Below, piece by piece: positions 4,295-26,780 of a DNA stretch of 53,122 nucleotides. This stretch comes from an uncultured Clostridia bacterium (GTDB taxonomy: Bacteria > Bacillota > Clostridia > Oscillospirales > Acutalibacteraceae). Both the position numbers and the translations under genes were made by a program. Numbering within the stretch: the first letter of the stretch is position 1; each line of letters starts with the position of its first letter. The stretch lies in contig CAMJOD010000001.1 in the NCBI GenBank assembly GCA_946407465.1, forward strand, positions 1 through 53,122, given 5' to 3'. The notes under the pieces were generated by a model. The model had not been told where the DNA came from. It searched no databases and saw nothing but the letters and a program-made list of their open reading frames with translations.

Positions 4295-4338
4295 AAAAAC
4301 AAAAAGCACACCCGTCAATTCTTTGAAGGGTATGCTTT
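4295..4338 (-). terminator. Intrinsic terminator of the PqqD/S26 unit
   Basis: AAAGCACACCC...GGGTATGCTTT hairpin; the preceding A-run gives a U-tract on the minus strand. Confidence 0.6.
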
Positions 4339-4346
4339 GCAACGCG

Positions 4347-5097: not shown

Positions 5098-5126
5098 GTC
5101 GCCACTTCCTCGCTGTTGATAAGGCT

Positions 5127-5155
5127 ATTATAATATAGTTTGCAAAAAATTGCAA
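5127..5155 (-). promoter_or_regulatory. Sigma-A promoter for the pqqD-S26 pair
   Basis: Minus strand TTGCAA-17 nt-TATAAT. Confidence 0.6.
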
Positions 5156-5217
5156 GAGCATGCGCCGGGCGGAATACTGTCAAAACGGATTTATAACCGC
5201 CTTGTGCCGAAACCGTG

Positions 5218-6360: not shown

Positions 6361-6464
6361 TTTGCCACCGCCCTTTCTGCTGCTATTATAGCATGAAAAC
6401 CGGCGCATGGCTATCCCAAAATGTCGAAATCAACGAAATACTTGTTATAAATTCATAAAATCTA

Positions 6465-6493
6465 TTGCGCCGATAAGATAATAATGGTACAAT
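6465..6493 (+). promoter_or_regulatory. Sigma-A promoter (extended -10) for the accessory locus
   Basis: TTGCGC-17 nt-TACAAT with TG one base upstream of the -10, in an AT-rich intergenic region. Confidence 0.55.
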
Positions 6494-6530
6494 AAAGTAT
6501 ATTTATTATTCCGGTAAAGGATGTTATAGC

Positions 6531-7316
6531 ATGAATATCCCCTTCAGCGGCAGAAGCTTTTCAAACTCGGGCAAACGCCTGTTGATTACCTTTTGTCTGG
6601 ATGTGTCTCCCTCGATGGGAAGTGAAATTCTCGGCAAAAAATCCGCGATTGCCATTTTGAACGAAACCGTGAGCGGCATTGCGGAGGAGCTTTCCAAGGA
6701 CAAAAAGCTCCGCAGCATGGTGGAGCTGATGTTTGTCACCTTTTGCACGGACGTGCTGCATGTGGAGCGCATGCCCCTGAATCAGTTTTCACACAGAGAG
6801 TTTACGGAGGAGCCTGTCGGCGGCTCCGATATTCCCAACGCGGTGCTGTCTACCTTTCGGCTGATTGACGAGCGCATCGGCGACTATCAAAAGGCGGGCA
6901 TCCGCTATCACAGCCCGATTTTTGTGCTCATCAGCGACGGCAACCCCGACTACGAGGAGGCTGACGAGACCGAGCGCCGCGCCATGCGCATGGTCAACGA
7001 GCGCTGCCGCAGCGACGTTACCGGCTCGGTGTGTCCGTTTATTATCGGCATCGGCGACGAGCTCAACGAGACCACGCGCAGCACGATGGCAGGCTACGCA
7101 AGGGGCTTTATGGACGGCTATTTCCATATTATGGGCGACGAGGAGCTGCAAACCAGAATTGCCAAGATGATAGTCAAGCTGTTCGGTAGCAGCGTCAAAT
7201 GTGTGGCGCAGAGCAGCAACCAGACCGCCCGTTCGCTGGGAGAAACGGCAGGCGAGATGAACCGCGTACACACGCAAATCAACGCCACCATTCAGGAATA
7301 CAGAAATTTGGTGTAG
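6531..7316 (+). CDS. terY: TerY-like vWA domain protein (copy 1)
   Basis: MIDAS LDVSPSM, VELMFVTF, PIFVLISDGNPD; followed by PP2C and kinase genes. Confidence 0.82.
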   Translation: MNIPFSGRSFSNSGKRLLITFCLDVSPSMGSEILGKKSAIAILNETVSGIAEELSKDKKLRSMVELMFVTFCTDVLHVERMPLNQFSHREFTEEPVGGSDIPNAVLSTFRLIDERIGDYQKAGIRYHSPIFVLISDGNPDYEEADETERRAMRMVNERCRSDVTGSVCPFIIGIGDELNETTRSTMAGYARGFMDGYFHIMGDEELQTRIAKMIVKLFGSSVKCVAQSSNQTARSLGETAGEMNRVHTQINATIQEYRNLV

Positions 7317-7325
7317 CAGGGTTTC

Positions 7326-8300
7326 GTGATGCGGCAGTGGAAATACGGATATACTATCCGAATCGGCGAAAAGCACCTGCGGACAGGAGCCGTCTGTCAG
7401 GACAGCGTGTTTGCGCTGGAGGATGAAAAATGCATTGTGATGGCGCTTTGCGACGGAATCGGGTCGCTGCCCCTGTCGGGCAGAGCCGCTCAGCTGGCGG
7501 CTGCGGCTGCCTGCCATATTCTGCGCAAGTGTGCCGATATAAATTTTTATCATCACGCCGAGGTGCCAAACGGCATGATGAAGGATTTGCTCGAGAGAGT
7601 TGACCGCTTTGTCACCGGCAAATTCAGCGAAGAGGGCGCCGACCGCTCGCAGGGCGACAGCACGCTGGCGTTTGTGTTTGTGTCCAAGCTCTTTGACTTC
7701 GGCTTTGCCGGCTGTCTGGGCGACAGCGCCGTCTGCCTGATTCGCAAATCGGGCAACATCTGTCTGACCGAGAGCAACGCCAATCTGGAGAGCACGGCGA
7801 GCCTCCACATCCGCGAGCCGTGGCGGCTTGCCAAGTCCGAGGCGTTTCGGCTGGGTGATGATTTTTTTGGCGCCATACTCACCTCCGACGGCATGGACAG
7901 CGAGATTTATACAAAAAATTCTTCGCAGGTTTTTCGCCGTGCGCAGGTGTATTTTAATGCCGCGCAGAGCGGCAATGTGGAGCAGACGCTCGCAGCGCTG
8001 GCGGAGCGTGCCGTCCGTCAGTCCGGCGGCGAGCTGGATGACGACATCAGCATCGCGGTGCTCAGCCGCGCTGTCGGCGACGTGATTTTTCCGCAGGACG
8101 TCACCTGGCTGTGCGCCTGCGGTGCGCGCAACCGGCTGGAAAACTCCTATTGCTTTCGCTGCGGACGCGATTTTTTGACACTGTACAGCCGCGTTTCGTT
8201 TGCCAAATACGGCGGCAAAACACAGTTCTTCCGCTATGCCAACCAACATGCTGCGCTGGAGCGGAGAATTTTGGACGGTATCACCAATCAAAACAAATGA
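7326..8300 (+). CDS. PP2C-family phosphatase with C-terminal zinc finger (copy 1, soluble)
   Basis: CQDS, LCDGIGS, LGDS, LTSDG and DDISI motifs; WLCACG...N...CFRCG. Confidence 0.87.
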   Translation: MMRQWKYGYTIRIGEKHLRTGAVCQDSVFALEDEKCIVMALCDGIGSLPLSGRAAQLAAAAACHILRKCADINFYHHAEVPNGMMKDLLERVDRFVTGKFSEEGADRSQGDSTLAFVFVSKLFDFGFAGCLGDSAVCLIRKSGNICLTESNANLESTASLHIREPWRLAKSEAFRLGDDFFGAILTSDGMDSEIYTKNSSQVFRRAQVYFNAAQSGNVEQTLAALAERAVRQSGGELDDDISIAVLSRAVGDVIFPQDVTWLCACGARNRLENSYCFRCGRDFLTLYSRVSFAKYGGKTQFFRYANQHAALERRILDGITNQNK

Positions 8301-8321
8301 GTGCTGCAAAGGAGACGCCAA

Positions 8322-10037
8322 ATGGCAGAGCAATATGAACAATATAATGTGGTGGTGATTGATTCGTCGCTCTTTCCGTGCAAGCTGAACGACGAGATGA
8401 TGAACTGCCTGAAAAGCGCCAGAAGCATTTATGTGTCGGGCACCTTCCACTCGGAAATACGCGAGCTGAAGGAGCTGCTCTCCGAGGAGGACAGAAAAAA
8501 CTGCGACAGCAACATGAAGCAGCTCAATACGATCATTCATCCCAAGGTGATGAATCTCAGCGCGTATCCGGAGCTGAACAGCGATATTTGGGATTTTTTG
8601 GAGCTGTGTTCCACCAGACCGCACGCGGACAAAATGCTGATTATCACCGCCAACCGGCTGCTGCTGCAGCGCGTGGTATGCAACCATTTTCCGATGGATA
8701 TTTATAACCTCAACACGAATCACTACCTCAGCCACAAGCTCTATCCCACCATTGAGCGCCACTACACGGTCGATAACAACGACACGCCGGTCAGCGCCAA
8801 GGCTGCGGTGCGCTTTGGCAAGGGCACGCGTCTGTATGCGGAGCGCCGAAACGGCAGGCGCAGCGAGCCGGTCGTGCTGGGCGATATGCTCGGAGACGGT
8901 CAGGGAGGCGAGGGAAATGTCTATCACCTCACCGGTGAATTTGCCGGAGAGGTGGCAAAAATCTACAAGAACGGTCAGTTTCCGACCAACAAATATATCG
9001 CCACGCGCGAGATGGTGCAGAACCGGCGCTTTGGGGAGATTGTCTGGACGGCGTTTCCGGCAGGTATTCTGTACGCCGACAGGGGCTTTACGCAGCCGGT
9101 CGGCATCATGGAGCGCTACACCGAGACCCACAGCAGCCTGTATGACGACGAGCTGTTTTTCGGCGACACAGGCAACTGGACGCCCTCGCTGCTCAGCGTG
9201 CGTGTGTCGGATTTGCTCTATCTGTGCAAGTGCGTGACGCGCCAGATTTGTTATCTCAACATGCTGGGCGTGACGGTTGCCGATTACAATATCAAAAACT
9301 TTGACTATCCGCTCTCGCAGCGCCAAAGCAGCCGCAGCGGTCTCGACTTTATTCAGATGTGGGACTCCGACAGCTTTGGCTACAACAATTATTTCAGCGG
9401 TTATATGGCGGACGTCAACCGCAAAAACTACGACATTAAAAAAAAAACCGATATTCTGGATTTGTGCAACGACGAGCTCTACAGCTTTTTGTTCCAGATT
9501 TTGACGCTCGGCGACAACCCCTACAATCCTGTCACCGGCAGATTTAACTACGAAAACGACAGCTATTATCAATATGCGCGAAAGGACTTTGTTCCGACCT
9601 CGCTGTGGAACGCGTTTGAGGCGTTTTTTACCGGCAAGTCCAAGGCGTCGCCGCAGATGATGCTCCATCTGCTGCACGAGGAGCTGGAAAGGCGCCTGCG
9701 CACCGGCGAAACTGACGTCACCTACAGGGAGCTTGTCAGCAGAATCGACGCCGGCTTTTTTGATGAAGCCGCCGACGCCGTACCTCCTGTCTATTCACCG
9801 GCGCTCAATTTTTTTCCGTATGGCAACCGCGTTATACCCGAGGTGAACGGAGGAGATAACGGTCAGCCTCCCGAGACAGGCGGCACATCCGGCAAAGGGC
9901 AGGAGCCGGGTGAAATCGCAGATACGGGCAAGGAGTCCGGCTTGCCGGATAAGCCAAGGCGCAAGCTCGGTTGCCTGACCGCAAGTCTGATTGCCGTTGC
10001 GGTTATGGCGCTCGTCATACTTTTACTTTTCTTATAA
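8322..10037 (+). CDS. YegI-like Ser/Thr kinase with N-terminal PIN-like domain and C-terminal TM helix
   Basis: GQGGEGNVY, VAKIYK, VADYNIKNF and WDSDSF motifs; hydrophobic C-terminus; AAAGGAG RBS before the ATG at 8322. Confidence 0.82.
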   Translation: MAEQYEQYNVVVIDSSLFPCKLNDEMMNCLKSARSIYVSGTFHSEIRELKELLSEEDRKNCDSNMKQLNTIIHPKVMNLSAYPELNSDIWDFLELCSTRPHADKMLIITANRLLLQRVVCNHFPMDIYNLNTNHYLSHKLYPTIERHYTVDNNDTPVSAKAAVRFGKGTRLYAERRNGRRSEPVVLGDMLGDGQGGEGNVYHLTGEFAGEVAKIYKNGQFPTNKYIATREMVQNRRFGEIVWTAFPAGILYADRGFTQPVGIMERYTETHSSLYDDELFFGDTGNWTPSLLSVRVSDLLYLCKCVTRQICYLNMLGVTVADYNIKNFDYPLSQRQSSRSGLDFIQMWDSDSFGYNNYFSGYMADVNRKNYDIKKKTDILDLCNDELYSFLFQILTLGDNPYNPVTGRFNYENDSYYQYARKDFVPTSLWNAFEAFFTGKSKASPQMMLHLLHEELERRLRTGETDVTYRELVSRIDAGFFDEAADAVPPVYSPALNFFPYGNRVIPEVNGGDNGQPPETGGTSGKGQEPGEIADTGKESGLPDKPRRKLGCLTASLIAVAVMALVILLLFL

Positions 10038-10058
10038 AATTGCAAAGGATAGATTACT

Positions 10059-10826
10059 ATGAGTCAAACAGGAAGATTCGGCAACACCAGCAAGCGGCTC
10101 CCGATTGTGTTTTGTCTGGATGTTTCGCCCTCGATGAACTGGGACGTGGACAACAGCGACATTATTCCGATTGAGCTGCTCAACGATTCGGTCAACACCT
10201 TCATTCGCGAAATCAACAGCGACGGCAGAACCAAGTCGTCGGCAGAGGTGGCGTATGTGACCTTTTCCACCAATATCGAGGTGGATTCGCAGTTTATGCC
10301 GGCGCGCAATCTGGACAACATCCACCTCAAAACCGTCAGGGAGGGCGGCACCAACATGGCGCAGGCGGTGCTGCGTGCCTACGAAAAGCTGGAGCAGCGC
10401 GTCGCCATGTATGAGCAGATGGGACTGCGCTACAATGTTCCGTTTTTTGTGCTGGTGACAGACGGCAACCCAGATGATAATGATGACAACGAGCTGCAAA
10501 AGCGCGCGATAGAAACCGTCAACGCCCACTGCCATTCGCACCACGGCGCAAGCGGCATCATCATTCCGTTTATCGTCGGCGTCGGCAGCCGTGTGGACAA
10601 AAATACCCTGCTGCGCTATTCGGAGGGCTTTACCAACGGCTTCTTTCACATCAGAGGTAATTCCGAGCAGGTGCAGACCTGCTTTGCGGACGTGTTCCGC
10701 GTCATCAGCAACAGCACCAAGGCGAGCGTTCACCTGAATCTGTCCGCCGGAGAGATTGTGGAGACCATTCGCACCACCATGAACAAGGGTGTGGAGGAGC
10801 TCGACAGAGAGCTGGCGAGATTATAA
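10059..10826 (+). CDS. terY: TerY-like vWA domain protein (copy 2)
   Basis: RLPIVFCLDVSPSM, GGTNM, VLVTDGNPD; paralog of 6531-7316. Confidence 0.87.
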   Translation: MSQTGRFGNTSKRLPIVFCLDVSPSMNWDVDNSDIIPIELLNDSVNTFIREINSDGRTKSSAEVAYVTFSTNIEVDSQFMPARNLDNIHLKTVREGGTNMAQAVLRAYEKLEQRVAMYEQMGLRYNVPFFVLVTDGNPDDNDDNELQKRAIETVNAHCHSHHGASGIIIPFIVGVGSRVDKNTLLRYSEGFTNGFFHIRGNSEQVQTCFADVFRVISNSTKASVHLNLSAGEIVETIRTTMNKGVEELDRELARL

Positions 10827-10846
10827 TACCGCATCGGGGTTTGCTT

Positions 10847-12322
10847 ATGAAAAACTGGAAATACGCGTTTTACCGGCAAACGGGACTCAGCCACGGCGTC
10901 TGTCAGGATTCTGTGGACGTCTATGCGGATGATACGCGCATGATCGCCTGCCTTTGCGACGGTCTCGGCTCGCTGAAAAATTCCGATGTGGCAGCGGAGG
11001 AAACCGTCAAAAATGTGATAGATTTGTTTCGCGCCGTTCCGAACGCGCCGACGCCTCAAACCGATTTGGCGCCGTTCCGGCGCAAGCTGACGGCGGAGCT
11101 GCAAAGGCGGCTCAAGTCGGCTGCGGCAGAGAGGAATATGGCGCCGGACAGCATGGACTGCACGCTGCTGTTTGCCTGCCTTTTCCTAAAGCAGAACATG
11201 GCAATGATCGGCTGTCTCGGCGACAGTGCGCTCTGCGTTATCCGCGACGACAAGGCGCCTGCACTCTTTTGCGACAGCGACTTTATCGGCACGCGCGCCG
11301 TGCTGGACCATGACGCGGCGGAGCATTTGCATTGCAGTGTCCTTCCGCTCGACGGTCACGTCAAAAGCATTTTGCTGACCTCCGACGGACTGGAAAACGA
11401 AATCTACTACAAGGGCTTGACCTATGTCGCCAAAAATACAGAGCTGTATCTGAACGCCATGCTCAGAGACAAGCCGGAAGCCATCATGCAAAAGCGCATT
11501 GAGGAGCTGACCGCTGCCGGGGACACTGTCTTTGACGACGATATCAGCGTGGCGGTTCTTTCCTGCATGGACCGCCCCATACGGCTGGAGGACGAGCCGA
11601 CATGGCCCTGTGTTTGCGGCGCCGAGAATTTGTTGGTCGATACCTTCTGCACCGAATGCTCGCGCGATTTTCTGGATTTGTATAAGAATATAGATTTCAA
11701 AGGCGACAGAGCAGGCTTTTTCCGCTATATCCGCCGCAATCCGAACGCCAGACAGGCGCTGATGAGCTCTATTTCCGACGGTAGCGTTCCCTTTACTCCC
11801 GAAATACGCCCTCAACCGGCACAGCCGCAGCCGCCGGAGCAGACTGCGCCGCTTCAACTGACCGACAGCCTTGCGCCGGAGCCGCCGGTGACGCCGCGGC
11901 GTGTGGAGGCAAAGAGCGCCAAAAAAAACAACACCGTGATGCTTGCCGTTGTGGCGGCAGCTGTTGTGGCTTGCGCCGCACTGATGACAGTGCTCTTGAT
12001 GGCGCTGCTCCGCAACGGGCAGGAAGAAGCCCAAAATCCGGAGCCTGCCGTTACCGCAGTCGCCAAGCCGCCAACGCCAACGAAGCACCACGAAAAAAAG
12101 CCGACGGAAAACGAAAAAAGCACAGAGAGTGAACAGCCGACGGAAAGCAGTGTGCCCGACGATTCGAGCGTGGGTGAAAGTGTCAATCCGGAGGAAAATC
12201 CATTGCCCGAGAGCTTGGAGGAAATCCTTTCGGGTGCAGAGGGCGGCTGTCACGGCTATAATTCCTATAATCCTTACGATTCCTATGATTTCTATAATGA
12301 CCGGAACGCTTACGGACAATAG
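10847..12322 (+). CDS. PP2C-family phosphatase with zinc finger, Pro-rich linker, TM helix and acidic tail (copy 2)
   Basis: CQDS, LCDGLGS, LGDS, LTSDG, DDISV; WPCVCG...CTECS; TM segment VMLAVVAAAVVACAALMTVLLMALL. Confidence 0.87.
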   Translation: MKNWKYAFYRQTGLSHGVCQDSVDVYADDTRMIACLCDGLGSLKNSDVAAEETVKNVIDLFRAVPNAPTPQTDLAPFRRKLTAELQRRLKSAAAERNMAPDSMDCTLLFACLFLKQNMAMIGCLGDSALCVIRDDKAPALFCDSDFIGTRAVLDHDAAEHLHCSVLPLDGHVKSILLTSDGLENEIYYKGLTYVAKNTELYLNAMLRDKPEAIMQKRIEELTAAGDTVFDDDISVAVLSCMDRPIRLEDEPTWPCVCGAENLLVDTFCTECSRDFLDLYKNIDFKGDRAGFFRYIRRNPNARQALMSSISDGSVPFTPEIRPQPAQPQPPEQTAPLQLTDSLAPEPPVTPRRVEAKSAKKNNTVMLAVVAAAVVACAALMTVLLMALLRNGQEEAQNPEPAVTAVAKPPTPTKHHEKKPTENEKSTESEQPTESSVPDDSSVGESVNPEENPLPESLEEILSGAEGGCHGYNSYNPYDSYDFYNDRNAYGQ

Positions 12323-12348
12323 AAAAACGGCAGATAAACCGAACAGAC

Positions 12349-12390
12349 AAACGCTGTATTTTGCATGGATGTGCAGATACAGCGTTTTTT
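12349..12390 (+). terminator. Intrinsic terminator after the TerY-P unit
   Basis: AAACGCTGTAT...ATACAGCGTTT hairpin ending in a T-run. Confidence 0.7.
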
Positions 12391-12522
12391 ATAATATACA
12401 TAATTGATGAAACGTGCGGATTTGTTGATTTTGGAGAAAAATCCTGCCTTTTTGTCAAAAATTCTGCGTTGTAAATAGATGTGACCCATTTTATGTAAAA
12501 ATAAAAGCAACAATATGGTAGA

Positions 12523-13752
12523 ATGTTTTTTCGCTTGAGCGAACAGGAACGGCAAGAGCACTATCTGGCAAAAAGCACTTCGGATATATTAAAGAGAAAA
12601 AAGCTTGCATTCGGCACCGCACATATGGCGGTGCTGGAGGACGACGGCACCGTCTCCGCCTACGGCGACAACAGCCGCGGACAGTGCGAGGTCGCGGCGT
12701 GGCGCGATATTCAAAAAATCGCGGCAGGTGATTTTCACACCGTCGGGCTGAAAAAGGACGGCACCGTCCTTGCCGCAGGCGACAACACCTACGGACAGTG
12801 CAACGTCGGCGAATGGAGCGGCGTTGCGGAATTGTTTGCCGAAAGGAACCTCACAACCGCCTTTACACAGGACGGCGCCATGCTGGTCGCCGCCGCAAAG
12901 CCGGAGGCAGTGCAGGCAAAAAAAGAAAACGAAGAGGCAGCACGCAGAGAGCAGGCGTTTGCCGCCAAAAAGGAACAGGAAAAGCTGCTTGCCGGCGTCA
13001 ACGCGCGAACGGCGGCGCAAATCTGCGACCGCATGGAGGCGCTGCTGAAGCAGCAGCAGTCCGTCTCCGAAAACAACACCGCCCGACTGGAGCAATTGCT
13101 GAAAAGCAGCCTTGAAAAGCTGGTTCACGAGGTTGCCGCGGCGCCGCAACAGCAGCCGTCTTTGACGCCCAAGCAGCAGAAGCATGTGCCGCCGTCAAAT
13201 TTCGGCTACAAAATCGTCAACGGGCAGGCGTATATTTTGAGCTATACGGGCGACGAACGCGACATGGTGATCCCCGAAACCATCGAGGGCGCGCCGGTCA
13301 CGATGATAGAAGTGCGCGCGTTTGAAAACGACACCTTTATCGAGCGCGTGGTTTTGCCGCCGAGTCTGCAAATCATCCGCAAATACGCCTTTCGCGGCTG
13401 TGAAAATCTGCGGAAGATAGAGATTCCCGGCAACTCCGAGCTCAAGATCATCGGCGAGTGCGCGTTTGAAAAATGTGAAAAGCTCGTCGGCACGGCGGAC
13501 AGCCCGTCCCAAAAGCGGCTGGTGCTGCCAAACGGCATACAAAGCATCGCGCGCTGGGCGTTCGCTCAGTGTCAGTCGCTGCATACCGTGGTGGTTCCCG
13601 AGTCGATACAGACCATCGGCTTCGGTGCGTTCAGCGAATGTACCTCGCTGGACAAGCTCTGGCTTCCGCAGGGAGCACAGAACCGCCTGGGCAGGCTCGA
13701 CCTGATCGTAGACCGCCTGAATTGCCTGCAATGGGGCACGCCGGCTGTTTGA
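12523..13752 (+). CDS. RCC1-repeat + coiled-coil + BspA-type LRR (LRR_5) protein
   Basis: AAGDFHTVGLKKDGTVLAAGDNTYGQC repeats; IPETIEG..VTMI...AF and LPxSLxxIxxxAF repeats; start codon uncertain. Confidence 0.8.
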   Translation: MFFRLSEQERQEHYLAKSTSDILKRKKLAFGTAHMAVLEDDGTVSAYGDNSRGQCEVAAWRDIQKIAAGDFHTVGLKKDGTVLAAGDNTYGQCNVGEWSGVAELFAERNLTTAFTQDGAMLVAAAKPEAVQAKKENEEAARREQAFAAKKEQEKLLAGVNARTAAQICDRMEALLKQQQSVSENNTARLEQLLKSSLEKLVHEVAAAPQQQPSLTPKQQKHVPPSNFGYKIVNGQAYILSYTGDERDMVIPETIEGAPVTMIEVRAFENDTFIERVVLPPSLQIIRKYAFRGCENLRKIEIPGNSELKIIGECAFEKCEKLVGTADSPSQKRLVLPNGIQSIARWAFAQCQSLHTVVVPESIQTIGFGAFSECTSLDKLWLPQGAQNRLGRLDLIVDRLNCLQWGTPAV

Positions 13753-13851
13753 TATACGGGCGTCCAAAAAGATGCCTGCCTGCCAATATGTTTACTTCTA
13801 CTACACAGATCCGTCTGACCGTGCCGTCGGAGAAAGGGTGAGACGAACACT

Positions 13852-15456
13852 ATGTTTGATGCGAACAAAGGATTTTTTTATCTGGTTTTCGCCAACACGG
13901 ATGATTGTTTCTTTACAGAATCCTACATCAAAATGGATTTTGAATCCACTATCAAAATGCACATGCTCGAGAATGATTTCCGGCATATCTGCCTGTTCGG
14001 AAGGGCGCCGCTCTCGTGCGATTACGCCTACCGCCTCGATTACCGCGGCTCGGCATATATCAATCCGATCTCGTTTATCAAAAAGAAGATGAAGTGGCCG
14101 TTCGATGTCAAGCACAAATATATGGCGGACGTCGATGAAAGAAACGAGGAAAACGGCGTCAAAAGGGGACATGCGGAGTTTAACCTTGCCTTTCTTCCGG
14201 AGATTTTGCAATATATGTTTGAGGTCATGGAGAACGAGCGTGATATTGCTGTTGTCTGTCCGCTCAAGATCTGGGCGGAATGCTGCGGTGAGGAGCCGTT
14301 TTTGAAAAAGCTGGCTTCCTGCCGTTCGCACGCCACGCACAACATCGTGGTGCTGACGAGCAGTGTGGACGCGTCGGAAAACGACGTCTATTTCCGCAAT
14401 CCGGCTTATGAGCTGGACGCACCTGCCGAAACGGCGTCGCTGCCGTTCTTTTTTAACGAAAAGCTCTTTCCGTATATGGTCAGCAAGTTCAACAACGGCT
14501 TTTCGAGCACGCCAAAGCTGGTGCACACCTACGACGCGCTGCAGGAGGTTTTTGCCGACCGCATGCTCGTCCTCAATGATCTGAGCTACGAAAAACTGCG
14601 CACAGCAGTCAAATATATTTTTATGCGCCGCAGCGGCGGAAACTTTTTCTATTCGCCCGATCTGTATGCGGCGGTCATTTGGGCTTGGTACGAAAATCCC
14701 GGGTTCAAAGACAAGTATGCCTTCCTGCATCTGCCTGCCAATCCGTTCCGTTCCATGCGGGTCATCACGGACTATATCGGGCGCTACAACATCACCGGCA
14801 TCGCGGATGTGATCATCCGTCAGGAGCAGGCGTGGCAGGTGCGCGAATTTCTTGCGCGCTGGAAATGCGCGGAAAAATGTCCCTCCATCGTCTACGAAAA
14901 CAGCGCCTCGCAGGACAACCACTGCAGCGCGATCGTAGAGATGATCATCGCCTACAAAAAGACGATGAAACGGCACGAGGCGATTTTGGGCGACACCGGC
15001 GCGGCACAGATGAACCGCATCATGCTCTTTTTCAGCAATCCGTCCTACACCTCCTGCCACAACAAGGTCATGCTGCCGCACAAGCGCTTTGCCGAAGAGG
15101 AAAACAAAACCGTTATCACCCAAATGCTCAACAAGCTCCGCGATCAGACGGAGTGGAACAGTTGGGAGGAGGGCGCCATGCTGCTGCTGTACACGCTGTT
15201 TGAGCAGTGCTACCGCCAGTCCAAGGCGATGTGCAGCATCGACCAGTACAACGAGCTGGGCAGATCCGTGTTCGAAAAAGCGCTGCAGGCGATGCAGTAT
15301 TGCATGTACCGCGCGGAGGATGTCTACGGCACCATGGACGAACTGAAGCTGGCGGCAAAGCGCGCCAATCAGTTTGTGATGGAGGCACAGAGCATCCTGA
15401 GCAGCGGCAACAACAAAAAAATCAGAGATTATGTGATATTAAAGGGGGTATCGTAA
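13852..15456 (+). CDS. Hypothetical protein
   Basis: 534 aa ORF with RBS-like GAAAGGGTGA, 3 nt before the next gene; no family recognised. Confidence 0.75.
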   Translation: MFDANKGFFYLVFANTDDCFFTESYIKMDFESTIKMHMLENDFRHICLFGRAPLSCDYAYRLDYRGSAYINPISFIKKKMKWPFDVKHKYMADVDERNEENGVKRGHAEFNLAFLPEILQYMFEVMENERDIAVVCPLKIWAECCGEEPFLKKLASCRSHATHNIVVLTSSVDASENDVYFRNPAYELDAPAETASLPFFFNEKLFPYMVSKFNNGFSSTPKLVHTYDALQEVFADRMLVLNDLSYEKLRTAVKYIFMRRSGGNFFYSPDLYAAVIWAWYENPGFKDKYAFLHLPANPFRSMRVITDYIGRYNITGIADVIIRQEQAWQVREFLARWKCAEKCPSIVYENSASQDNHCSAIVEMIIAYKKTMKRHEAILGDTGAAQMNRIMLFFSNPSYTSCHNKVMLPHKRFAEEENKTVITQMLNKLRDQTEWNSWEEGAMLLLYTLFEQCYRQSKAMCSIDQYNELGRSVFEKALQAMQYCMYRAEDVYGTMDELKLAAKRANQFVMEAQSILSSGNNKKIRDYVILKGVS

Positions 15457-15459
15457 GAC

Positions 15460-19076: not shown

Positions 19077-19567
19077 GGTGCATATGCTGCCGCAGTCCGG
19101 TGGAGGAAGAAAAGGTTTGCTGTCCGCGCTGCGGCTTTCCGCTGTTGGGCGGCGACCGGGAGAACAGACAGAAGATTGCCGGCGACTACCGCAAAAAGCT
19201 GCTCGGCGGCACGTTTCTTTCCGTCCGGCAATATTATTACGGCTATGACGGCAACGGCGATTTGCAGGAGCTGAAAAGCGAATATGTCCGCGCGGCATGC
19301 GCCGGTGAGCTGCCGCCGGAGGGCATTCTGTGGCTCGACTGCGCATTTGCGCCTCTAGCGTCGGGACGGGATGTGGAGCTGGATATACAAATTCAAAACG
19401 GCAGCCGTTCGCACAGTGCCAGGCTGCTTGTCGCGGCAGGCAAGCTGGACCGGATGACGCGGCTGGGCATTTACAGCGACGAGGGCTTGCGCATCCGCTT
19501 TGCGGTCGGAAACGGAACCGAAGCCGTTTTGTCGGACAGCGTGCCGTTACTTATTAATCAGAACTAA
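19073..19567 (+). CDS. Zinc-ribbon protein with beta-rich C-terminal domain
   Basis: MRCICC...CCPRCGFP; ATGA overlap with the upstream stop and GAGG RBS. Confidence 0.75.
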   Translation: MRCICCRSPVEEEKVCCPRCGFPLLGGDRENRQKIAGDYRKKLLGGTFLSVRQYYYGYDGNGDLQELKSEYVRAACAGELPPEGILWLDCAFAPLASGRDVELDIQIQNGSRSHSARLLVAAGKLDRMTRLGIYSDEGLRIRFAVGNGTEAVLSDSVPLLINQN

Positions 19568-19584
19568 ATCGGAGGTATATTTCA

Positions 19585-21027
19585 ATGGGATTTTTTTCAA
19601 AAAAAAGCAAAGACCCAAACCCTGTCAACGATGCTGTCAAAAAGAGCATCCAAGAGGCGGAGCAACAGCAGGAGACCCAGCTGAAGCTGGTTGAGGTTCG
19701 CAAAACAAAGGAAGACATCGACAATGATTTCTTTGATTTGGTCACCAGCCGCGAAGTGGCGGAAAAGAGCCACAAGGCAGCGCAGGCAAACGAAAGCAAG
19801 CTCGAAAAGCTGGAGCAGGCGGACGCCGCCAACAAGGCGACCGGCAAGGAGAATGTCAGCAAGCTCTGGGAGATGGAAAAGGATATTTACATCATTCCCG
19901 GCGGCTATGCAGAAGCGCCCGGCGAAAACAACGATGTTCCGCGCAACAATCTGGACGTCTACAACCGCGCCGTTGAGCAGCTGGCGCGTCAATACAAGGC
20001 AAAAACACCGGCTGAGGCGGTGGAAACGGGAGCGGATCAGCTCTATCCCTATATCAAAAAATACGTCAACAGTCTCCGCAGCGCTATCGAGAGCGGACGC
20101 GCCATGAAGGCGAACGCCTGCATCGACATGCTCCGTTATGTGCTGAACATCGGCTACCGCTACGAGGACGCCGCGACGCCCGAAAAGTTCAATGAGCGCG
20201 TGAGAAAAAAGGTAGAATTTATGGAGAACACCGGCAGCTACCTTCTCAGTGACATCGACTACTACTACCAGCTTTTGGCGAACTACGAGCTGGAGGAAGC
20301 CGCCTACGCGCAGTACCTCGAAGAATTTGACAGAATCGTGGGGCCGTATCTCCGCGACTGTCCGCCCGAAATCAAAGAGAAGCTCAATCATCTCGGCTTC
20401 AAGCGCGCCATGCGCGAGCTGCCTGCCGGTGACGACGCCAGAAAATATCTGGGTATTCTGATTGCCTCCGAGGCATTCCTGACCCGTGCGCTGATGAGCA
20501 GCCTGCGTCTGGAGGCGTTCTCCATGGAGATTCTCCGCATGCGCGGCAATATTCAGGAGCTTGTCAACGAGTGCAAAAAGGCGTTTGTCGCGTCGGGCGA
20601 CGACTTTGACTACAACGCGCAGTTCCGCGCGATGGAGAAAATCCGTCAGAAGAACATAGCCGAAATCAACCGTCTCAACGATATTGTCGCCGAGGAGGAG
20701 GACTTTACCAGAAGAACGCAGTCGCTCCTCAAGGAGGCAGCCGAGAACGAAAAGCTTGCCCTCGCAGTGGCGCGTGCGGCGGAGTCAATCGAAAAATACA
20801 ACAAGCTGCAAAAGCGCAACGAGAATTTGAGAAAGCGCGAAAACGAAGCGCGCGGCGCCTATATCGAAGAAAAACAGCGACTTGAGGAAGAAATGCTCAA
20901 GGAAAAGCAATTACAGCTCGAGGAGGACGAGCGCCTCAGACGTATTGAGGAGGAGCTGGCGCAGCAGGAGTCGGAAAATGAGACCATGACCTACGAAGAA
21001 CCGGTCGAGGAACTGTATACCGAATAA
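19585..21027 (+). CDS. All-helical/coiled-coil protein with N-terminal MGFFSKK amphipathic peptide
   Basis: GGAGG RBS; 480 aa of helical composition with an acidic C-terminus. Confidence 0.8.
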   Translation: MGFFSKKSKDPNPVNDAVKKSIQEAEQQQETQLKLVEVRKTKEDIDNDFFDLVTSREVAEKSHKAAQANESKLEKLEQADAANKATGKENVSKLWEMEKDIYIIPGGYAEAPGENNDVPRNNLDVYNRAVEQLARQYKAKTPAEAVETGADQLYPYIKKYVNSLRSAIESGRAMKANACIDMLRYVLNIGYRYEDAATPEKFNERVRKKVEFMENTGSYLLSDIDYYYQLLANYELEEAAYAQYLEEFDRIVGPYLRDCPPEIKEKLNHLGFKRAMRELPAGDDARKYLGILIASEAFLTRALMSSLRLEAFSMEILRMRGNIQELVNECKKAFVASGDDFDYNAQFRAMEKIRQKNIAEINRLNDIVAEEEDFTRRTQSLLKEAAENEKLALAVARAAESIEKYNKLQKRNENLRKRENEARGAYIEEKQRLEEEMLKEKQLQLEEDERLRRIEEELAQQESENETMTYEEPVEELYTE

Positions 21028-21045
21028 CAGAAAGGAGAATGCCGT

Positions 21046-21918
21046 ATGTTTTGGGACAAAAACCTCCGCGATGCCAAAAAAGCGGAAAAAAAGATGGAAA
21101 AAAGGGTAAAAGAGGCAGAAAACCTTGTAAAAGCCAATGACACCCTGACCGATATAGCGCAGAAAAAAGAAAAGCTCGGCGATACCTTTGCCAGCGAGAC
21201 ATGGTACAACAAGCACCTCACCCGCACACAGCTGGACGACGAAATCCGCGAGGCGCGTCAAAACCTCTTTATACAGCGCGACCGCCTGCTGTTCAGGCTG
21301 AAAAACGCGACCAAGGAATACAAAGCCGTTCTCCAAAAGCCCAACACCAGCGTCAAGCGCAAGGAGCTGGCGCGCTGCTCTGCTACCGCCAAAAACGCCG
21401 CCTATGCACTGGCGGTTGTGGAGGATGCCATTGACCGTTTGGACAGCATCCGCTCAGAGCAGGAGTGGCGCGACATTATGCGCGATCTGACCAACGGCTA
21501 CAAGCTGGTCAACGCCATCTCCACCGGCTCCGATTTGATGACGCGCTTTGCGTTCTGGCTCCAAAAGGCAAAAAGCGAGATAAAGGGCGACATCTCGGTC
21601 GAGGCGATGGAATACTACTTCGGCAAGCCGATTGACAAGCTCCTCGAGGAGCAGACCGGCACCGAAAAGGCGGCGGACATGCTTGTCAAAAATTCTCTCC
21701 TCGACTTGGATGACGAAGACGAGCTGCTCGAGGCGATTCGCTGGGGCTCGGCGTTTACCGTAACGCCTGCCGAGGCGGCTGATGTGGCGGCGCAGCAGAG
21801 CACCTATGCCGGCAGGCGCGGCGATACGCCCATCTTTAATGAAACGAGAGACATCAAGGGCGTCGGTGATTTGGACTTCTCCGCCATTAACGATGACGAT
21901 ATGCCCACCATGTTTTAA
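21046..21918 (+). CDS. Helical protein, candidate Snf7/ESCRT-III-like
   Basis: AAAGGAG RBS; basic helical N-terminal half, acidic C-terminal half ending DDDMPTMF. The ORF is solid; the fold call is pattern-based. Confidence 0.6.
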   Translation: MFWDKNLRDAKKAEKKMEKRVKEAENLVKANDTLTDIAQKKEKLGDTFASETWYNKHLTRTQLDDEIREARQNLFIQRDRLLFRLKNATKEYKAVLQKPNTSVKRKELARCSATAKNAAYALAVVEDAIDRLDSIRSEQEWRDIMRDLTNGYKLVNAISTGSDLMTRFAFWLQKAKSEIKGDISVEAMEYYFGKPIDKLLEEQTGTEKAADMLVKNSLLDLDDEDELLEAIRWGSAFTVTPAEAADVAAQQSTYAGRRGDTPIFNETRDIKGVGDLDFSAINDDDMPTMF

Positions 21919-21935
21919 GGGGAGAGGAGAGCAAA

Positions 21936-23597
21936 ATGGACACATCTTTGTTGCGCAACCTAAAGAATAAAGAAAACCGCTGCAGCAACTACAAGCGGCA
22001 GGCGGACACCATTTATATGCAGAACAACCGCCGGTACACCGAGGATCAGTGCCTGCTTTTGCAGCGAGCCGCCGATTTGGAGTCCGAGATGGCAAGCATG
22101 ACCATCGGCGCCGAGCGCGAGCACCATATCCGCGAAAAAAATCGTCTGGACTATGAGATCATGCGTATTCGCAGCGTGCTGGACGGCACGATTGCAAAGA
22201 CCGGCGACAAAGAAAAAAAGACCGGCAAGCCTGCGACGGGCAAGGAAAAGAGCAAGGACGAGCAGGAGCTGGACAGCGCCGTCCGCACCTGGTACAAGGA
22301 CAAGCCGCGCCATTCCTTTGAGGATGTCGCCGGTATGGAGGAAATGAAAAAGAAGCTCGCCGGCTGCATTGCCGACGCGCAGGCAGGCGACCTCCGCGAA
22401 TACCTCAAAATACCCAAGCTGAACTCCTATTTCTTTGTGGGACCTCCCGGCTGCGGCAAGACCTATATTGTCGAGGCGTTTGCCCATGAGCTGATGGATC
22501 AGGACTACAAATTCATCTCCATTCTCGGCTCCGACATCATCAGCAAATACGTCGGCGCCGCCGAAAAGAGCGTCACCCGTCTTTTTGAGGAGGCGGTCAA
22601 CAACGCGCCCTGCATCGTGTTTATCGACGAAATCGACAGCCTGTGCAAAAACCGCTCGCTGCCCAACCTTCCCGAATACGCGGCAAACATCACCACCTCC
22701 TTCCTGACAGGCTACAACCGCATTCACAGCGAGGATTCCAAGGTGATTTTTATCGCCGCCACCAACTATCCCAACCGCGTGGACGCCGCCATGCTCGACC
22801 GTGCCGAGATTATCCGTCTGCCGCTTCCCGACAAGGAGGCGCGAAAGGCTGCGTTTGTCCGCTATTTTGAGGGCATTGTGCAGCTCAAAAAGGGCTTGAC
22901 CTTTGATTTGATGGCGGAAAAAACATGGCGCTTCAACTACCGTGACATCGAGCGTCTGACATCCGCGCTAAAGCTGGCGCTGTTCCATGATGTGCTCGAT
23001 TTGTTCGGCGACCAGGCGCTCGCCATCGAAGCGCTGACCTCCGGCAAGTTTAAGCTTTCCGCCGAAAGATTTGACGAGGTGTTCGAAAGCTTCAAGCCCT
23101 CGCCCAAGGAAATGATTATCAACGACCTTGTGGCATGGGAAAAGTCCGTTCAGTCCGTGGTGGACTTTGCCGAGACCGACACCGCCTCGCTCTACGACTG
23201 CGAGCCGATTGCCGCCCACAAGAGCGCAAGCGCCGAAGCGGCACCGGAGCAGGACGAGGAAGAACCGGAGGAGCCGGAGGAAGCCGCGCCTGCCGCAGAG
23301 CCGGAGAACACCGAGCCGGTCTATCCGCTCAGCGAGAGCTTTACCGTTGATCCGCTGCTGGGCGTTGCCGAAATCCGTTTCCGCATCGGCGCACGCAAGG
23401 CAAACGGCGTCAAGGCGTATGTCAACAGCGCTCCCGTTGACCTCGAAACCGACGGCAGCGACTATTGGTTTTTCGTGGAGCCGGACGAGGACAGCGACGC
23501 GCTCGATGTGTTTGTCAAGGACGAGGCAGGCTATATCGGCGCCTTTACCGCCGTGATCAACCGCGCCATCAGCGACAACAAGGATTTTGATATTTAG
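21936..23597 (+). CDS. AAA+ ATPase, Vps4/CdvC-like, with MIT-like N-terminus and extra C-terminal beta domain
   Basis: KPRHSFEDVAG, GPPGCGKT, SDIISKYVG..EK.V..LF, IVFIDEIDSL, AATNYP, LPLPD. Confidence 0.85.
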   Translation: MDTSLLRNLKNKENRCSNYKRQADTIYMQNNRRYTEDQCLLLQRAADLESEMASMTIGAEREHHIREKNRLDYEIMRIRSVLDGTIAKTGDKEKKTGKPATGKEKSKDEQELDSAVRTWYKDKPRHSFEDVAGMEEMKKKLAGCIADAQAGDLREYLKIPKLNSYFFVGPPGCGKTYIVEAFAHELMDQDYKFISILGSDIISKYVGAAEKSVTRLFEEAVNNAPCIVFIDEIDSLCKNRSLPNLPEYAANITTSFLTGYNRIHSEDSKVIFIAATNYPNRVDAAMLDRAEIIRLPLPDKEARKAAFVRYFEGIVQLKKGLTFDLMAEKTWRFNYRDIERLTSALKLALFHDVLDLFGDQALAIEALTSGKFKLSAERFDEVFESFKPSPKEMIINDLVAWEKSVQSVVDFAETDTASLYDCEPIAAHKSASAEAAPEQDEEEPEEPEEAAPAAEPENTEPVYPLSESFTVDPLLGVAEIRFRIGARKANGVKAYVNSAPVDLETDGSDYWFFVEPDEDSDALDVFVKDEAGYIGAFTAVINRAISDNKDFDI

Positions 23598-23606
23598 GGT
23601 GAGCCG

Positions 23607-25076
23607 ATGGATGCAGAAAACACAGCCTCCCTGCCCTTTGAGCAGCGGTTCCGCACCTGCTTCGGCGATATGCTCGTCTGCAAAACGCCTGCCAACTCCA
23701 AGCTGTTTGCCGAGATGAATCTGCCGTCGTTTATCCGCGACTGGCTGATGATGCGCTTCTCCGACAAAAACGGCGCCGTTGACCAAAAAAAGCTGACAGC
23801 GTATATAAAAAAGACCATACCGGACAAGGCGCAGTGGAACAACATGCTGGTGGACATGCTCTGCCACAACCAAACCGCGCGGTTTCTTGCCAAGGTCAAA
23901 ATAGATTTTGATATGAAAAAAAAGCAGGCGCTGTTCTCGCTGCCTGCGTTTCAGGTGCCTGCCCGCAAGGGTGAGGCGGTGGTGGACTGGCAGGTCATCG
24001 AGAAGCACCGCGACGAGCTGCTGTCCTCCGCCGACGTGTGGGGCATCGTCAGTATTCGCTGCGAGTCCGACGCCGAGGGAAAGAACAATCTCTTCAAGCT
24101 GATTGATTTCACACCCTTTTGTCCGTATAACATCGACCTGAATTACTACATCAGCGCGCGTCCGTTCTTCTCCGTCTCCGAGTGGATTGACATCGTGCTG
24201 TCCGCCATGGACTACAACCCGAACGGCTATCAAAGCGAAGCCGAAAAAACAGCGGTGCTCAAACGCCTGCTGCCCTTTGTGGAAAAGCGCGTCAACCTGG
24301 TTGAGCTCGCGCCCAAGGAGACGGGCAAGTCCTATATGTTCTCGCGCCTGAGCCGGTACGGATGGCTCATCAGCGGCGGCAGCATCTCACGCGCCAAAAT
24401 GTTTTATGATATTTCCAAGCGCACCAACGGTCTTGTTTCCAAGTACGACTATGTGGCGCTGGACGAGATTTCGAGCATCAAATTTACCGATAAAATGGAA
24501 ATGCAGGGCGCCTTAAAGGGCTACCTCGAAAGCGGTGACTACCATGTCGGTGATTACCGCGGCGTGGGCGAGGCAGGCGTGGTGCTGCTCGGCAACATCA
24601 GCAGCGCCTCCATGGACACCAATCTCAATATGTTTGAGCAGCTTGCCGATTTCTTCCGTGATTCCGCGCTGCTCGATCGCTTCCACGGCTTTATCAAGGG
24701 CTGGGATATTCCCAAGATGCACGAAGGGCTGAAGGCAAACGGCTGGGCGCTCAACACCGAATATTTTGTGGAAATCCTGCACGCCCTGCGCACGTGCTCC
24801 GTCTACCGTTCGGTGGTGGACAGACTCATTGAGGTGGAGCCGAACGCCGCGGTGCGCGACACCGAGGCGATCAAGCGTTTGGCGACCGCCTATCTCAAGC
24901 TGTTGTTTCCGCATGTGACAGAGCCGGACAAGATTGCTCCCGGGGAATTTCGGCACTATTGTCTGGAGCCTGCCATGGAAATGCGCGGCATCATCAAAAC
25001 CCAGCTCGGCATCATTGACCCGGGTGAATTTGGCGGCAAGACCATTCCTGCCGTTCGGCTGCGTGCGGAGGTGTAG
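23607..25076 (+). CDS. brxL: BrxL-like protein lacking the Lon protease domain (short TIGR02688-like form)
   Basis: LPSFIRDWL, RLLPFVEKRVNLVELAPKETGKS, DYVALDEI, LKGYLESG and SALLDRFHGFIKGW motifs; 489 aa. Confidence 0.85.
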   Translation: MDAENTASLPFEQRFRTCFGDMLVCKTPANSKLFAEMNLPSFIRDWLMMRFSDKNGAVDQKKLTAYIKKTIPDKAQWNNMLVDMLCHNQTARFLAKVKIDFDMKKKQALFSLPAFQVPARKGEAVVDWQVIEKHRDELLSSADVWGIVSIRCESDAEGKNNLFKLIDFTPFCPYNIDLNYYISARPFFSVSEWIDIVLSAMDYNPNGYQSEAEKTAVLKRLLPFVEKRVNLVELAPKETGKSYMFSRLSRYGWLISGGSISRAKMFYDISKRTNGLVSKYDYVALDEISSIKFTDKMEMQGALKGYLESGDYHVGDYRGVGEAGVVLLGNISSASMDTNLNMFEQLADFFRDSALLDRFHGFIKGWDIPKMHEGLKANGWALNTEYFVEILHALRTCSVYRSVVDRLIEVEPNAAVRDTEAIKRLATAYLKLLFPHVTEPDKIAPGEFRHYCLEPAMEMRGIIKTQLGIIDPGEFGGKTIPAVRLRAEV

Positions 25077-25079
25077 GCG

Positions 25080-26726
25080 ATGGCGAACGAAAACTTCCTT
25101 GACCTTGAGCGCTTCCGTATTCCCTGCGGCGCTGTCAAGCGGCTGGGCATCTTTGCGGATGAGAGCTTGGGCGCCAGCCCCAACCGCCTGATTGGCTACA
25201 CGGATTATATTGACGTTTTTCGCAGTCTGGTGCCGCTTGCCGCGTTTGACGACAGCGGCGATATAAGCGACTGGGATGATTTTAACGAGATTTTTCCCGA
25301 CACCTCCTTTGGCGGACAGACGACCGGAGCAGCTGTTCTGCTTTCGGGCAAGGGCGGCTGCGGCAGACATACGGCGGACAAAACGCTGATGAGCACCGCG
25401 GTTTCCTGTGTGGAAAACGCCGCTTCCGACAGGGATGACGGAGACGATATGTTCGCTTTTATGGACGAGCCGGATCCGGAAGATTTTCTCCATATCTACC
25501 AAATCGACCTGCGCGCCTTTGCGGCGTTCACGGAGCGCGCGCTTGCCCGAGCTGTTGACGACTTGTTTGACGGGCTGACACAGACCGCCGTTTCGTCGCC
25601 GAAGGTGATTCACTACTATTCGCTGGGCAACGTGACGGCGCTGTTGAAGAGCGAAAAGCTCGCGCCGCGCTTTTTGTACCGCGTGGAGCAGCTCAAAAGC
25701 AACGCCTATGCGCACTGCATTGTGACCTGTATCTTTGACGGAGACGCGAGCACGCTGCCCGAGAAGAAAAAAACACCCTTTTTTGTCCTGAATTTTGACC
25801 TGCCGAATGCGTCGGCACGCACCGAGTATTTCAGCTATCTCTGCGACCGCTACCTGAACATTCAGATTGATTATACCGCCGCAGAGCTGGCGGAAAAGAC
25901 GAAGGGCTTCACCTTTGCCATGATCAAAAAGCTCGGCGCTCACATGATGATGGCGGTCAAAAACGAGATTATCGAAAAGGGACTGAACCCCAAAAATTAC
26001 GTTCATCAGGCGACCATCAACAAGCTGGAGGTGCTGATCGTCGATAAAAAGAAAATCGACGCGCTCCTAAAGCAAATCGGCGGCACAAAATATGTCGCGC
26101 CGGTCTCGCAGGACAGACAGGTGGTCATACAGCCGGTGTCCGGCGGCTACAGCGGCACACCCGTCAGCGGAGGCAGCGGCACGCAGCCGCCGCAGCAGCC
26201 ATCCGGACAGAGCGAAACGCCTGACCGCGAGCTGAGCCATGAGGAGCTTGCAAAAGAAATGGTCAAAAACATCGACAAGCCGGATGATATAACCAAGCTG
26301 CGCGACGGCATGCTGGTGCCGACCGGCTACGGTCCCGCTATTCTGATGAATCACGGCACGGTATTTCCCGATAAATTCCGTGAAAAAGACATTTCGCTGC
26401 CGCAGTTTTTGCGCCGCTGCCGCGAGCTGGGCTATCTGTCGCTGGACAATATCAAAACCGCGTCCGTCGATCCGCGCACCGGCGAGGTGGAGCTGTTCCC
26501 GATCGACGAAAAAGCGCTGCAGCCGACCGCCGACGTGCCCGACGGCATGCTGTTCGGCGAAGTCATCATGGAGGGACAGGTCTTGGAGGCAAATCTCCAA
26601 AGCCTCGGTCACGACGCCGACTGGCTTGGCTATCAGCTGCGCCGGAAGAATATCGGGTCACCCAAGGAAATCTTCCTCGCCGTGTGCAAGTCCGACGGCG
26701 AGCCGGTGCTCTATGCCTATCAATAA
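25080..26726 (+). CDS. Degenerate AAA-like domain fused to DUF421/YetF C-terminal domain
   Basis: Altered Walker A LSGKGGCGRHT; AAA lid pattern FDLPNASAR...LAEKTKGFTFAMI; C-terminal GPAILMNHG...VIMEGQVL...WLGYQL matches DUF421. Confidence 0.7.
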   Translation: MANENFLDLERFRIPCGAVKRLGIFADESLGASPNRLIGYTDYIDVFRSLVPLAAFDDSGDISDWDDFNEIFPDTSFGGQTTGAAVLLSGKGGCGRHTADKTLMSTAVSCVENAASDRDDGDDMFAFMDEPDPEDFLHIYQIDLRAFAAFTERALARAVDDLFDGLTQTAVSSPKVIHYYSLGNVTALLKSEKLAPRFLYRVEQLKSNAYAHCIVTCIFDGDASTLPEKKKTPFFVLNFDLPNASARTEYFSYLCDRYLNIQIDYTAAELAEKTKGFTFAMIKKLGAHMMMAVKNEIIEKGLNPKNYVHQATINKLEVLIVDKKKIDALLKQIGGTKYVAPVSQDRQVVIQPVSGGYSGTPVSGGSGTQPPQQPSGQSETPDRELSHEELAKEMVKNIDKPDDITKLRDGMLVPTGYGPAILMNHGTVFPDKFREKDISLPQFLRRCRELGYLSLDNIKTASVDPRTGEVELFPIDEKALQPTADVPDGMLFGEVIMEGQVLEANLQSLGHDADWLGYQLRRKNIGSPKEIFLAVCKSDGEPVLYAYQ

Positions 26727-26740
26727 TTCCATATTCTTCA

Positions 26741-26780
26741 AAAAAGCGGAACACAGCCCTGTGTGGGTTGTGTTCCGCTT
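26741..26780. terminator. Terminator at the end of the accessory locus, between convergent genes
   Basis: AAGCGGAACACAGCCC...GGGTTGTGTTCCGCTT stem-loop; the A-run before it gives a minus-strand U-tract. Confidence 0.8.

Follow-up and report, generated by a model that had tools for sequence, protein, structure and literature searches.

The locus studied here raises the question of which of its 15 genes belong together and what they do. It occupied positions 6531-26726 of the window, by which we mean the whole stretch of 53,122 nucleotides that was analysed (contig CAMJOD010000001.1 of the uncultured Clostridia bacterium GCA_946407465.1). A sequence-only reading had proposed it as a single 15-gene system for defence or membrane remodelling. 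We found that the conserved unit was the 3' block g07-g15 (13852-26726), a nine-gene core accompanied by two optional modules. [quoted passage not shown]

A conserved core and its distribution

All 15 open reading frames (ORFs) were confirmed on the + strand (Table 1). The core encoded a dead AAA+ protein, a lidless Hsp70, a coiled coil, a zinc ribbon, a helical protein, the ESCRT-III-like protein, an AAA ATPase, an optional BrxL and a second dead AAA protein. When species genomes were scanned with an alignment of g12, 16 loci were recovered, under the titles Ruminococcus, Oscillospiraceae or Clostridia. Fifteen of them together with G037 and G132 made up the 17 mapped loci; L012, an apparent duplicate of another locus, was omitted from the maps, and two genes of G132 were placed by position and alignment only. 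The order g12-g13-(g14)-g15 was found in all 17 of these loci from gut Clostridia, and g07-g13 was complete in 14; the other three were truncated where the contig or the locus ended. BrxL was present at 12 loci and absent from five, DUF421 was carried by 7 of the 17 aligned g15 proteins, and at 8 of the 17 loci genes encoding RCC1 repeats and leucine-rich repeats (LRR) adjoined the core in the same orientation, on either side and in up to three copies. The locus is thus not a single obligate 15-gene system, since BrxL and DUF421 were optional and the RCC1-LRR gene moved or was missing.

The genomes G983 and G984 contained all 15 genes in identical order, but elsewhere in the genome; none of eight window flank proteins was matched upstream there. 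The vWA gene of the 5' unit was detected in 3 of the 15 core-bearing genomes searched, all drafts and with one query (the genomes of L016 and L022 were left out); in G983 and G984 it adjoined the core, and in G993 it lay on another contig. Therefore, the two units can co-occur, as had been suggested, but their association was not obligate.

The system was also rare. The core was present in 2 of 200 other genomes of the family, and in none of the 398 class genomes and 400 other phylum genomes sampled. A DNA-level search with window positions 1-20000 found no core-gene match in 18 genomes of the same genus and identified no empty insertion site.

The family of the g13 ATPase was larger in metagenomes, where the best 120 profile matches all had E <1e-179 and 73 of them were without the C-terminal domain; a metagenome scan limited to 1 of 64 parts retrieved 80 loci, two of which (L033 and L034) belonged to the family. 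L034 represented a variant (1054-8293) with a zinc ribbon, a g07-like gene, two similar helical genes, an ESCRT-III-like gene, the ATPase and a dead AAA, and no Hsp70 was found within its 8.3-kb contig. Of 79 loci on viral contigs, L113 alone contained a close ATPase, next to a dead AAA, and the rest of the system was not in the fetched DNA. On this contig from a viral collection (1-8409), the dead AAA was followed by an 845-aa family ATPase and then by several proteins that carried a zinc ribbon at the N-terminus.

Sequencing runs that contained DNA of the locus were, where labelled, bovine, sheep or gut metagenomes. Contigs from four RNA runs of four studies covered 24, 14, 29 and 30 of 30 locus bins, which fits expression without proving transcription or its level.

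Table 1. Coordinates of the genes and hairpins of the locus (positions in the window)
Feature	Position	Strand	Description	Basis
g01	6531-7316	+	vWA protein, TerY-like, accessory unit	PF00092, E 0.0075, below cut-off
g02	7326-8300	+	PP2C phosphatase with zinc ribbon	PF13672, E 5.6e-19
g03	8301-10037 (likely start 8322)	+	Predicted atypical Ser/Thr kinase, membrane anchor at the C-terminus	Alignment motifs, hydropathy 2.88
g04	10059-10826	+	vWA protein, TerY-like	PF00092, E 9.4e-11, over cut-off
g05	10841-12322	+	PP2C with zinc ribbon, one predicted transmembrane (TM) helix and Pro/Glu-rich tail	PF13672, E 2.5e-21
Hairpin	12349-12387	+	Terminator-like, with U-tract, between the two units	-20.5 kcal/mol, z -6.0
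g06	12523-13752	+	RCC1-repeat and BspA LRR protein, variable accessory	PF13540, PF13306
g07	13852-15456	+	Inactive AAA+ fold with C-terminal helical bundle, first core gene	Model, pLDDT (predicted local distance difference test) 86.6
g08	15460-17106	+	Dedicated Hsp70-family ATPase, 548 aa	PF00012 over residues 4-395, motifs present
g09	17103-19076	+	Long coiled coil	Only coiled-coil-type matches
g10	19073-19567	+	N-terminal Cys zinc ribbon with beta-rich domain	Sequence, conserved position
g11	19585-21027	+	Helical/coiled-coil protein with basic-aromatic N-terminus	Alignment
g12	21046-21918	+	Predicted Snf7/ESCRT-III-like protein	Model, structure searches, language-model neighbours, charge pattern
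g13	21936-23597	+	AAA ATPase: helical N-domain, AAA core, acidic linker, Ig-like domain, F-D-I tail	Alignments, profile searches
g14	23607-25076	+	BrxL, short type-4 form, optional	TIGR02688 414 bits (cut-off 329), PADLOC BrxL 669 bits
g15	25080-26726	+	Inactive AAA, with DUF421 in one sub-lineage	PF04239, hhalign to g13 profile
Hairpin	26745-26779	.	Bidirectional, terminator-like, at the 3' end of the locus	-31 kcal/mol, z -7.2

The predicted ESCRT-III-like protein

A membrane step was proposed because g12 resembled ESCRT-III. Its model contained a long helical hairpin (residues 60-132) and further helices at pLDDT 80. The best Foldseek match was the archaeal CdvB of S. islandicus (E 0.16). 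In a structure search against 48,161 chains, ESCRT-III proteins took six of the best 50 rows (ranks 3, 6, 9, 13, 18 and 30; two with 18% identity) at Z scores of 7.6-8.6. Such values, below 13, are often seen with helical bundles, and BAR domains ranked equal or higher. In another structure comparison, three CdvB2 chains aligned over residues 60-221 of the model or beyond (Z 7.5-7.7); they ranked behind BAR domains, which aligned only up to about residue 162, where most rows ended.

Among the ESM Atlas neighbours of g12 (score 0.91) there was a bacterial cluster of which 16% of the members had Snf7, and for its relative P0197 Snf7 clusters accounted for 22 of 30 named matches (0.92), a recognition below the trust level of the tool in a search filtered to named clusters. 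These neighbours pointed to the Snf7 side rather than to PspA.

ESCRT-III proteins have a basic N-terminal part and an acidic C-terminal part. The corresponding charges of g12 were +10 and -16, the same pattern was seen in 19 of 19 short relatives, and only g13 and g14 of the other 14 window proteins had the same signs. The short relatives came from a g12 profile search with 68 representatives, of which about 20 were only 204-235 aa long; their tails ended in an amphipathic helix, which we take to resemble MIM1 motifs. At L033, two tandem g12-like genes directly preceded the ATPase gene. Judged from the sequence and the model, g12 probably belongs to ESCRT-III.

The ATPase and its dead relatives

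The N-terminal helical domain of g13 comprised about 85 aa and may be MIT-like. Its AAA core was intact: Walker A, Walker B, the pore-loop aromatic, the sensor-1 Asn and Arg289 were conserved in 17 aligned proteins (L015 was omitted from the alignment), so that g13 has a single AAA domain of the active type. VPS4B aligned in one stretch to positions 23-348 of the g13 profile (139 bits), spanning the N-terminal region, and the single Cdc48 domains shown scored 105-108 bits; M. sedula Vps4 matched the profile to position 414. The best whole-protein scores for g13 belonged to two-domain Cdc48 proteins. As to membership in Vps4/CdvC, g13 reached 112 bits against a cut-off of 650. The ATPase tree had 44 rows, including 33 of 85 AAA candidates and six system rows, with few references and no eukaryotic Vps4. 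There, the g13 family formed a long-branched clade of its own (100/100) that was separate from three CdvC-like rows, and a constraint joining it with these rows was marginally rejected (approximately unbiased test, p-AU 0.035). Thus, g13 is likely laid out like Vps4 but is not assigned to Vps4. The earlier description as a Vps4-like ATPase therefore stands for the layout only.

Two further core proteins resembled AAA proteins that had lost their activity. Aligned to the g13 profile, g15 gave an hhalign probability of 97.6%, with the Walker A Lys replaced by Arg and Walker B lost; by sequence it is a dead, paralogue-like relative of g13. The first core protein, g07, which had been left unnamed before, had an AAA+ fold: in a wide structure search AAA+ proteins were 37 of the best 50 rows (Z up to 7.9), and no Walker A was found in the family alignment.

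A different arrangement, with an Hsp70-like gene of about 830-850 aa lying 5' of an ATPase of about 590 aa, was seen at nine loci (L039, L043, L047, L056, L076, L086, L114, L115 and L119, at about 5600-10900), three of them on viral contigs. The one that was scanned, at L039, is a kinase-AAA fusion. The ATPases of these loci adjoined the system clade under midpoint rooting.

BrxL and the tail of the ATPase

The g14 protein consisted of BrxL_N and an MCM-like ATPase without a Lon domain. The sequence-only reading had rightly called it protease-less; this is the known form in type-4 BREX (bacteriophage exclusion; PMC12839542). Twelve of the 17 aligned ATPases ended in an Ig-like domain and an acidic tail with F-[DE]-I or F-I-I, and brxL followed in 12 of 12; of the other five, four were without the Ig-like domain and L020 kept the domain with a replaced tail, and brxL followed in 0 of 5. 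These loci are kin, and 12 of 12 may represent one gain with a few losses rather than 17 independent events.

The nearest BrxL proteins in the class sample were 48-52% identical to g14 and were preceded by a DUF7863 and DUF7862 gene. At two of these loci a cysteine-desulfurase-like gene lay downstream, as in type-4 BREX (PMC12839542), and an annotated BREX-4 pglZ-brxL pair showed the same layout. With a profile of the g13 tail, two of the proteins encoded upstream of those brxL genes ranked first among the local ORFs (E 0.005); L030 aligned poorly and was omitted from the PglZ-tail profile. No longer protein carrying g13 residues 460-553 was found among 41 candidates, in a weak test. Because BrxL tracked the tail (12/12 against 0/5) and the tail weakly matched the C-terminus of type-4 PglZ, we lean towards the view that one sub-lineage captured the 3' end of pglZ together with brxL. 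PglZ itself (PF08665) was not matched in this 91% complete genome, and brxC was absent from the locus, no genome-wide search for it having been made.

What the system may do

A defence role was our leading guess, because the system was rare, its flanks changed with variable repeat-protein neighbours, BrxL and TerY-P, which the locus appears to have recruited, are known from defence loci (PMC12839542; PMC11090510), and the host had an FtsZ and dcw cluster of its own. In the proposed mechanism, g12 would assemble into a polymer at the inner membrane and be taken apart by g13, which would pull on the acidic tail, with the N-terminal helices of g13 gripping the terminal amphipathic helix of g12. 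The dead AAA folds of g07 and g15 might serve as scaffolds or brakes, and the polymer might be held or released by the Hsp70, the zinc-ribbon protein and the long coiled coil. The variable RCC1-LRR proteins would work as sensors, BrxL, a DNA-binding motor, would attach to the new tail of g13, and a smaller sub-lineage, including this genome, would have gained the membrane-anchored vWA/kinase/phosphatase unit as a likely regulator. A more specific version, a bacterial antiviral ESCRT with a Snf7-type polymer, an independently evolved Vps4-like ATPase and a BREX motor grafted via the PglZ tail, in which foreign DNA triggers constriction or scission of the membrane at the cost of ATP, seems to us improbable as a whole.

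Besides the limits given above for the structure scores, the Atlas recognition and the kinship of the loci, and besides the separate clade of g13, several results weighed against the phage-directed membrane machine. Pfam Snf7 (PF03357) and PspA (PF04012) matched neither g12 nor 25 aligned members and 36 distant relatives; the Snf7 miss was a weak negative because one control archaeal CdvB protein also missed the model at E 1e-4 and another fell below the cut-off. Searches of PDB sequences with g12 and its relatives gave no match, and hhalign of g12 against two archaeal CdvB proteins (17.2) was no better than block-shuffled controls (maximum 19.2). The N-terminal domain of g13 alone did not match MIT models, and when it was compared with three CdvC-like N-termini, shuffled controls scored higher. 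The link to PglZ was weak in direct comparisons, with Pfam DUF7862 matching 1 of 12 g13 tails (E 0.0043) and hhalign of the tail against the PglZ C-terminus giving E 0.006 at a probability of 6%. Finally, no nuclease or toxin effector domain was found in the system and no TM helix was predicted in g07-g15.

The same ESCRT-III/ATPase machine could instead stand in for PspA and, under stress from physical causes or antibiotics, repair the envelope or release vesicles, with BrxL and the phospho-unit as later passengers. We consider this rather unlikely. PspA_IM30 was not matched in the 91% complete genome, bacterial relatives of ESCRT-III serve membrane repair (PMC7619361), no effector domain was found, and the RNA-run contigs covering 14-30 of 30 bins would fit, although they do not prove transcription. 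On the other hand, the occurrence was very patchy (2/200, 0/398), one lineage was strictly tied to a DNA-binding BREX motor, and the repeat-protein neighbours varied.

It is also unlikely that g12 is an unrelated helical hairpin and the block a cytoplasmic chaperone/unfoldase conflict complex, which would trap or unfold invader proteins and have no membrane role. This would agree with the failure of every hidden Markov model test for Snf7 and MIT, the top whole-protein scores of Cdc48, the recurrence of Hsp70 and AAA neighbours at unrelated loci and a core without TM helices. However, structure matches, Atlas neighbours and charge pattern, three kinds of evidence, indicated Snf7/CdvB, and the behaviour of the CdvB controls made the Pfam miss a weak argument.

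A phospho-switched machine for which all 15 genes are obligatory is very improbable. In its favour, the order was identical in G983 and G984, the same RNA runs contained strain-level sequences of both units, and the kinase and one phosphatase are predicted to be membrane-anchored, but the vWA was unmatched in 12 of 15 core-bearing genomes (drafts, one query) and a strong terminator-like hairpin separated the units. A role in cell division was rejected, since FtsZ and dcw genes lay in the same window and the system was rare.

Other genes of the locus and its flanks

The match of g08 to DnaK was limited to the nucleotide-binding part, and the protein had no lid. At 37 bits against a cut-off of 822 it was far below the curated DnaK cut-offs and was rejected as a housekeeping DnaK. 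Relatives of g09 measured 447-1066 aa. No profile link to g12 supported g11 as a second ESCRT-III protein. At L018 (4801-9952), g10 was duplicated and g11 triplicated in one locus.

The 5' unit had the order vWA-PP2C-kinase-vWA-PP2C, with 33% identity between g01 and g04 and 30% between g02 and g05. Where two TerY-P triads had been read, there was one triad and another vWA-PP2C pair, and the kinase-like gene occurred once; vWA and PP2C were borne out by Pfam (weakly for g01), and the kinase by alignment motifs only. The Gly loop, Lys, D-Y-N-I-K-N and W-D-x-D-S-F of g03 were conserved in 4 of 4 aligned sequences, and we take these residues to be kinase motifs; the N-terminal ~130 aa may be PIN-like. 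Pfam, PADLOC, NCBIfam, PDB and hhalign gave no support for a kinase, the hhalign comparison with canonical kinases being not significant. The C-terminus of g03 was a Pro-rich linker with a hydrophobic helix in 4 of 4 aligned sequences. Among the phosphatases, g05 had a hydropathy of 2.76 at residues 368-386, and g02 was without the hydrophobic tail of ~100 aa present in three relatives (426-443 aa). A third PP2C of this kind, 44% identical to g05, lay on contig C80 of the same genome (G000; 6389-8344) behind three large, unassigned co-oriented genes. The RCC1-LRR protein g06 is likely a sensor.

As described before, the genes were tightly packed and co-oriented in two units, divided by one hairpin and closed by another, both much stabler than shuffled sequence (0/200 shuffles as stable). 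Intergenic gaps were 0-21 bp except at g05/g06 (200 bp) and g06/g07 (99 bp), and the several ATGA/GTGA overlaps reported earlier came down to 4-bp overlaps at g08/g09 and g09/g10. About 70 bp just 5' of g06 (window 12459-12531) were 83-95% identical in four genomes of the same genus that showed no core-gene match; this stretch is possibly a shared promoter or regulatory element. The GC content was 55.4% in the locus and 53.3% in the genome.

Flanking genes were of housekeeping types, among them a complete-looking dcw cluster with FtsZ (50533-51651 and 38821-50316). No integrase or transposase families were found in the 26 other window ORFs and five flank ORFs scanned, in agreement with the sequence-only reading. 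Pfam matched vWA, two PP2C, RCC1 with LRR, Hsp70, AAA, the N-terminal and ATPase domains of BrxL, and DUF421. No PADLOC model except that of BrxL was matched by the locus.

Comparison with known systems

The closest likeness was to archaeal Cdv (CdvB/CdvC) and to Asgard and eukaryotic ESCRT-III with Vps4 (Snf7/CHMP with VPS4), where one or two ESCRT-III-like genes likewise come immediately ahead of the gene for an AAA ATPase, which has one AAA domain and a small helical domain at its N-terminus, and where the predicted polymer subunit is basic, then acidic, with a terminal amphipathic helix. In contrast, the present system was bacterial, its ATPase, not assigned to Vps4, fell in its own long-branch clade, the host kept FtsZ, and the partners were two dead AAA+ proteins, Hsp70, a zinc ribbon and BrxL, unlike CdvA or ESCRT-II. 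PspA and Vipp1 share the predicted ESCRT-III superfamily fold, and Vipp1 is reported to be disassembled by an Hsp70 (PMC12798727); here the neighbours of g12 were on the Snf7 side and a dedicated AAA ATPase was adjacent.

With type-4 BREX the locus shared a short Lon-less BrxL, ~50% identical to that of type-4-like loci, and, just before it, a protein whose C-terminus was formed by an Ig-like domain and an acidic-aromatic tail. It differed in that no PglZ was found in the genome and no brxC, PAPS reductase or cysteine desulfurase in the locus, and in that BrxL was optional. [quoted passage not shown] Here, the zinc ribbons were on the phosphatases, the kinase ended in a TM helix with neither zinc ribbon nor OB fold, and there was an extra vWA-PP2C pair, no PADLOC match and no McrBC.

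It has been reported that only archaea and eukaryotes combine ESCRT-III with an ATPase of the Vps4 type (PMC11188069, PMC7619361), and that bacteria have Vps4-like ATPases with snf7 displaced; the accessible part of the latter account mentioned neither Hsp70 nor vWA (PMC11237479). We found no description of this gene set, which subscription papers, the web-app tables of PMC11237479 or other supplements could list, and no full-text work combining Vps4, BrxL and ESCRT-III. The proposal of an undescribed ESCRT-III/ATPase-like multiprotein system was thus supported: the system is real, no described equivalent was found, and its new element is the association of BrxL with the g13 tail.

For BREX, where the C-terminal region of PglZ has been proposed to recognise the invader (PMC12839542), this association suggests that the Ig-like domain and acidic tail at the PglZ C-terminus may be a docking site for BrxL. 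If our interpretation is true, such a pair in a bacterium, its ATPase forming a separate clade, would mean ATP-driven turnover of ESCRT-III in bacteria, either by descent or by convergence.

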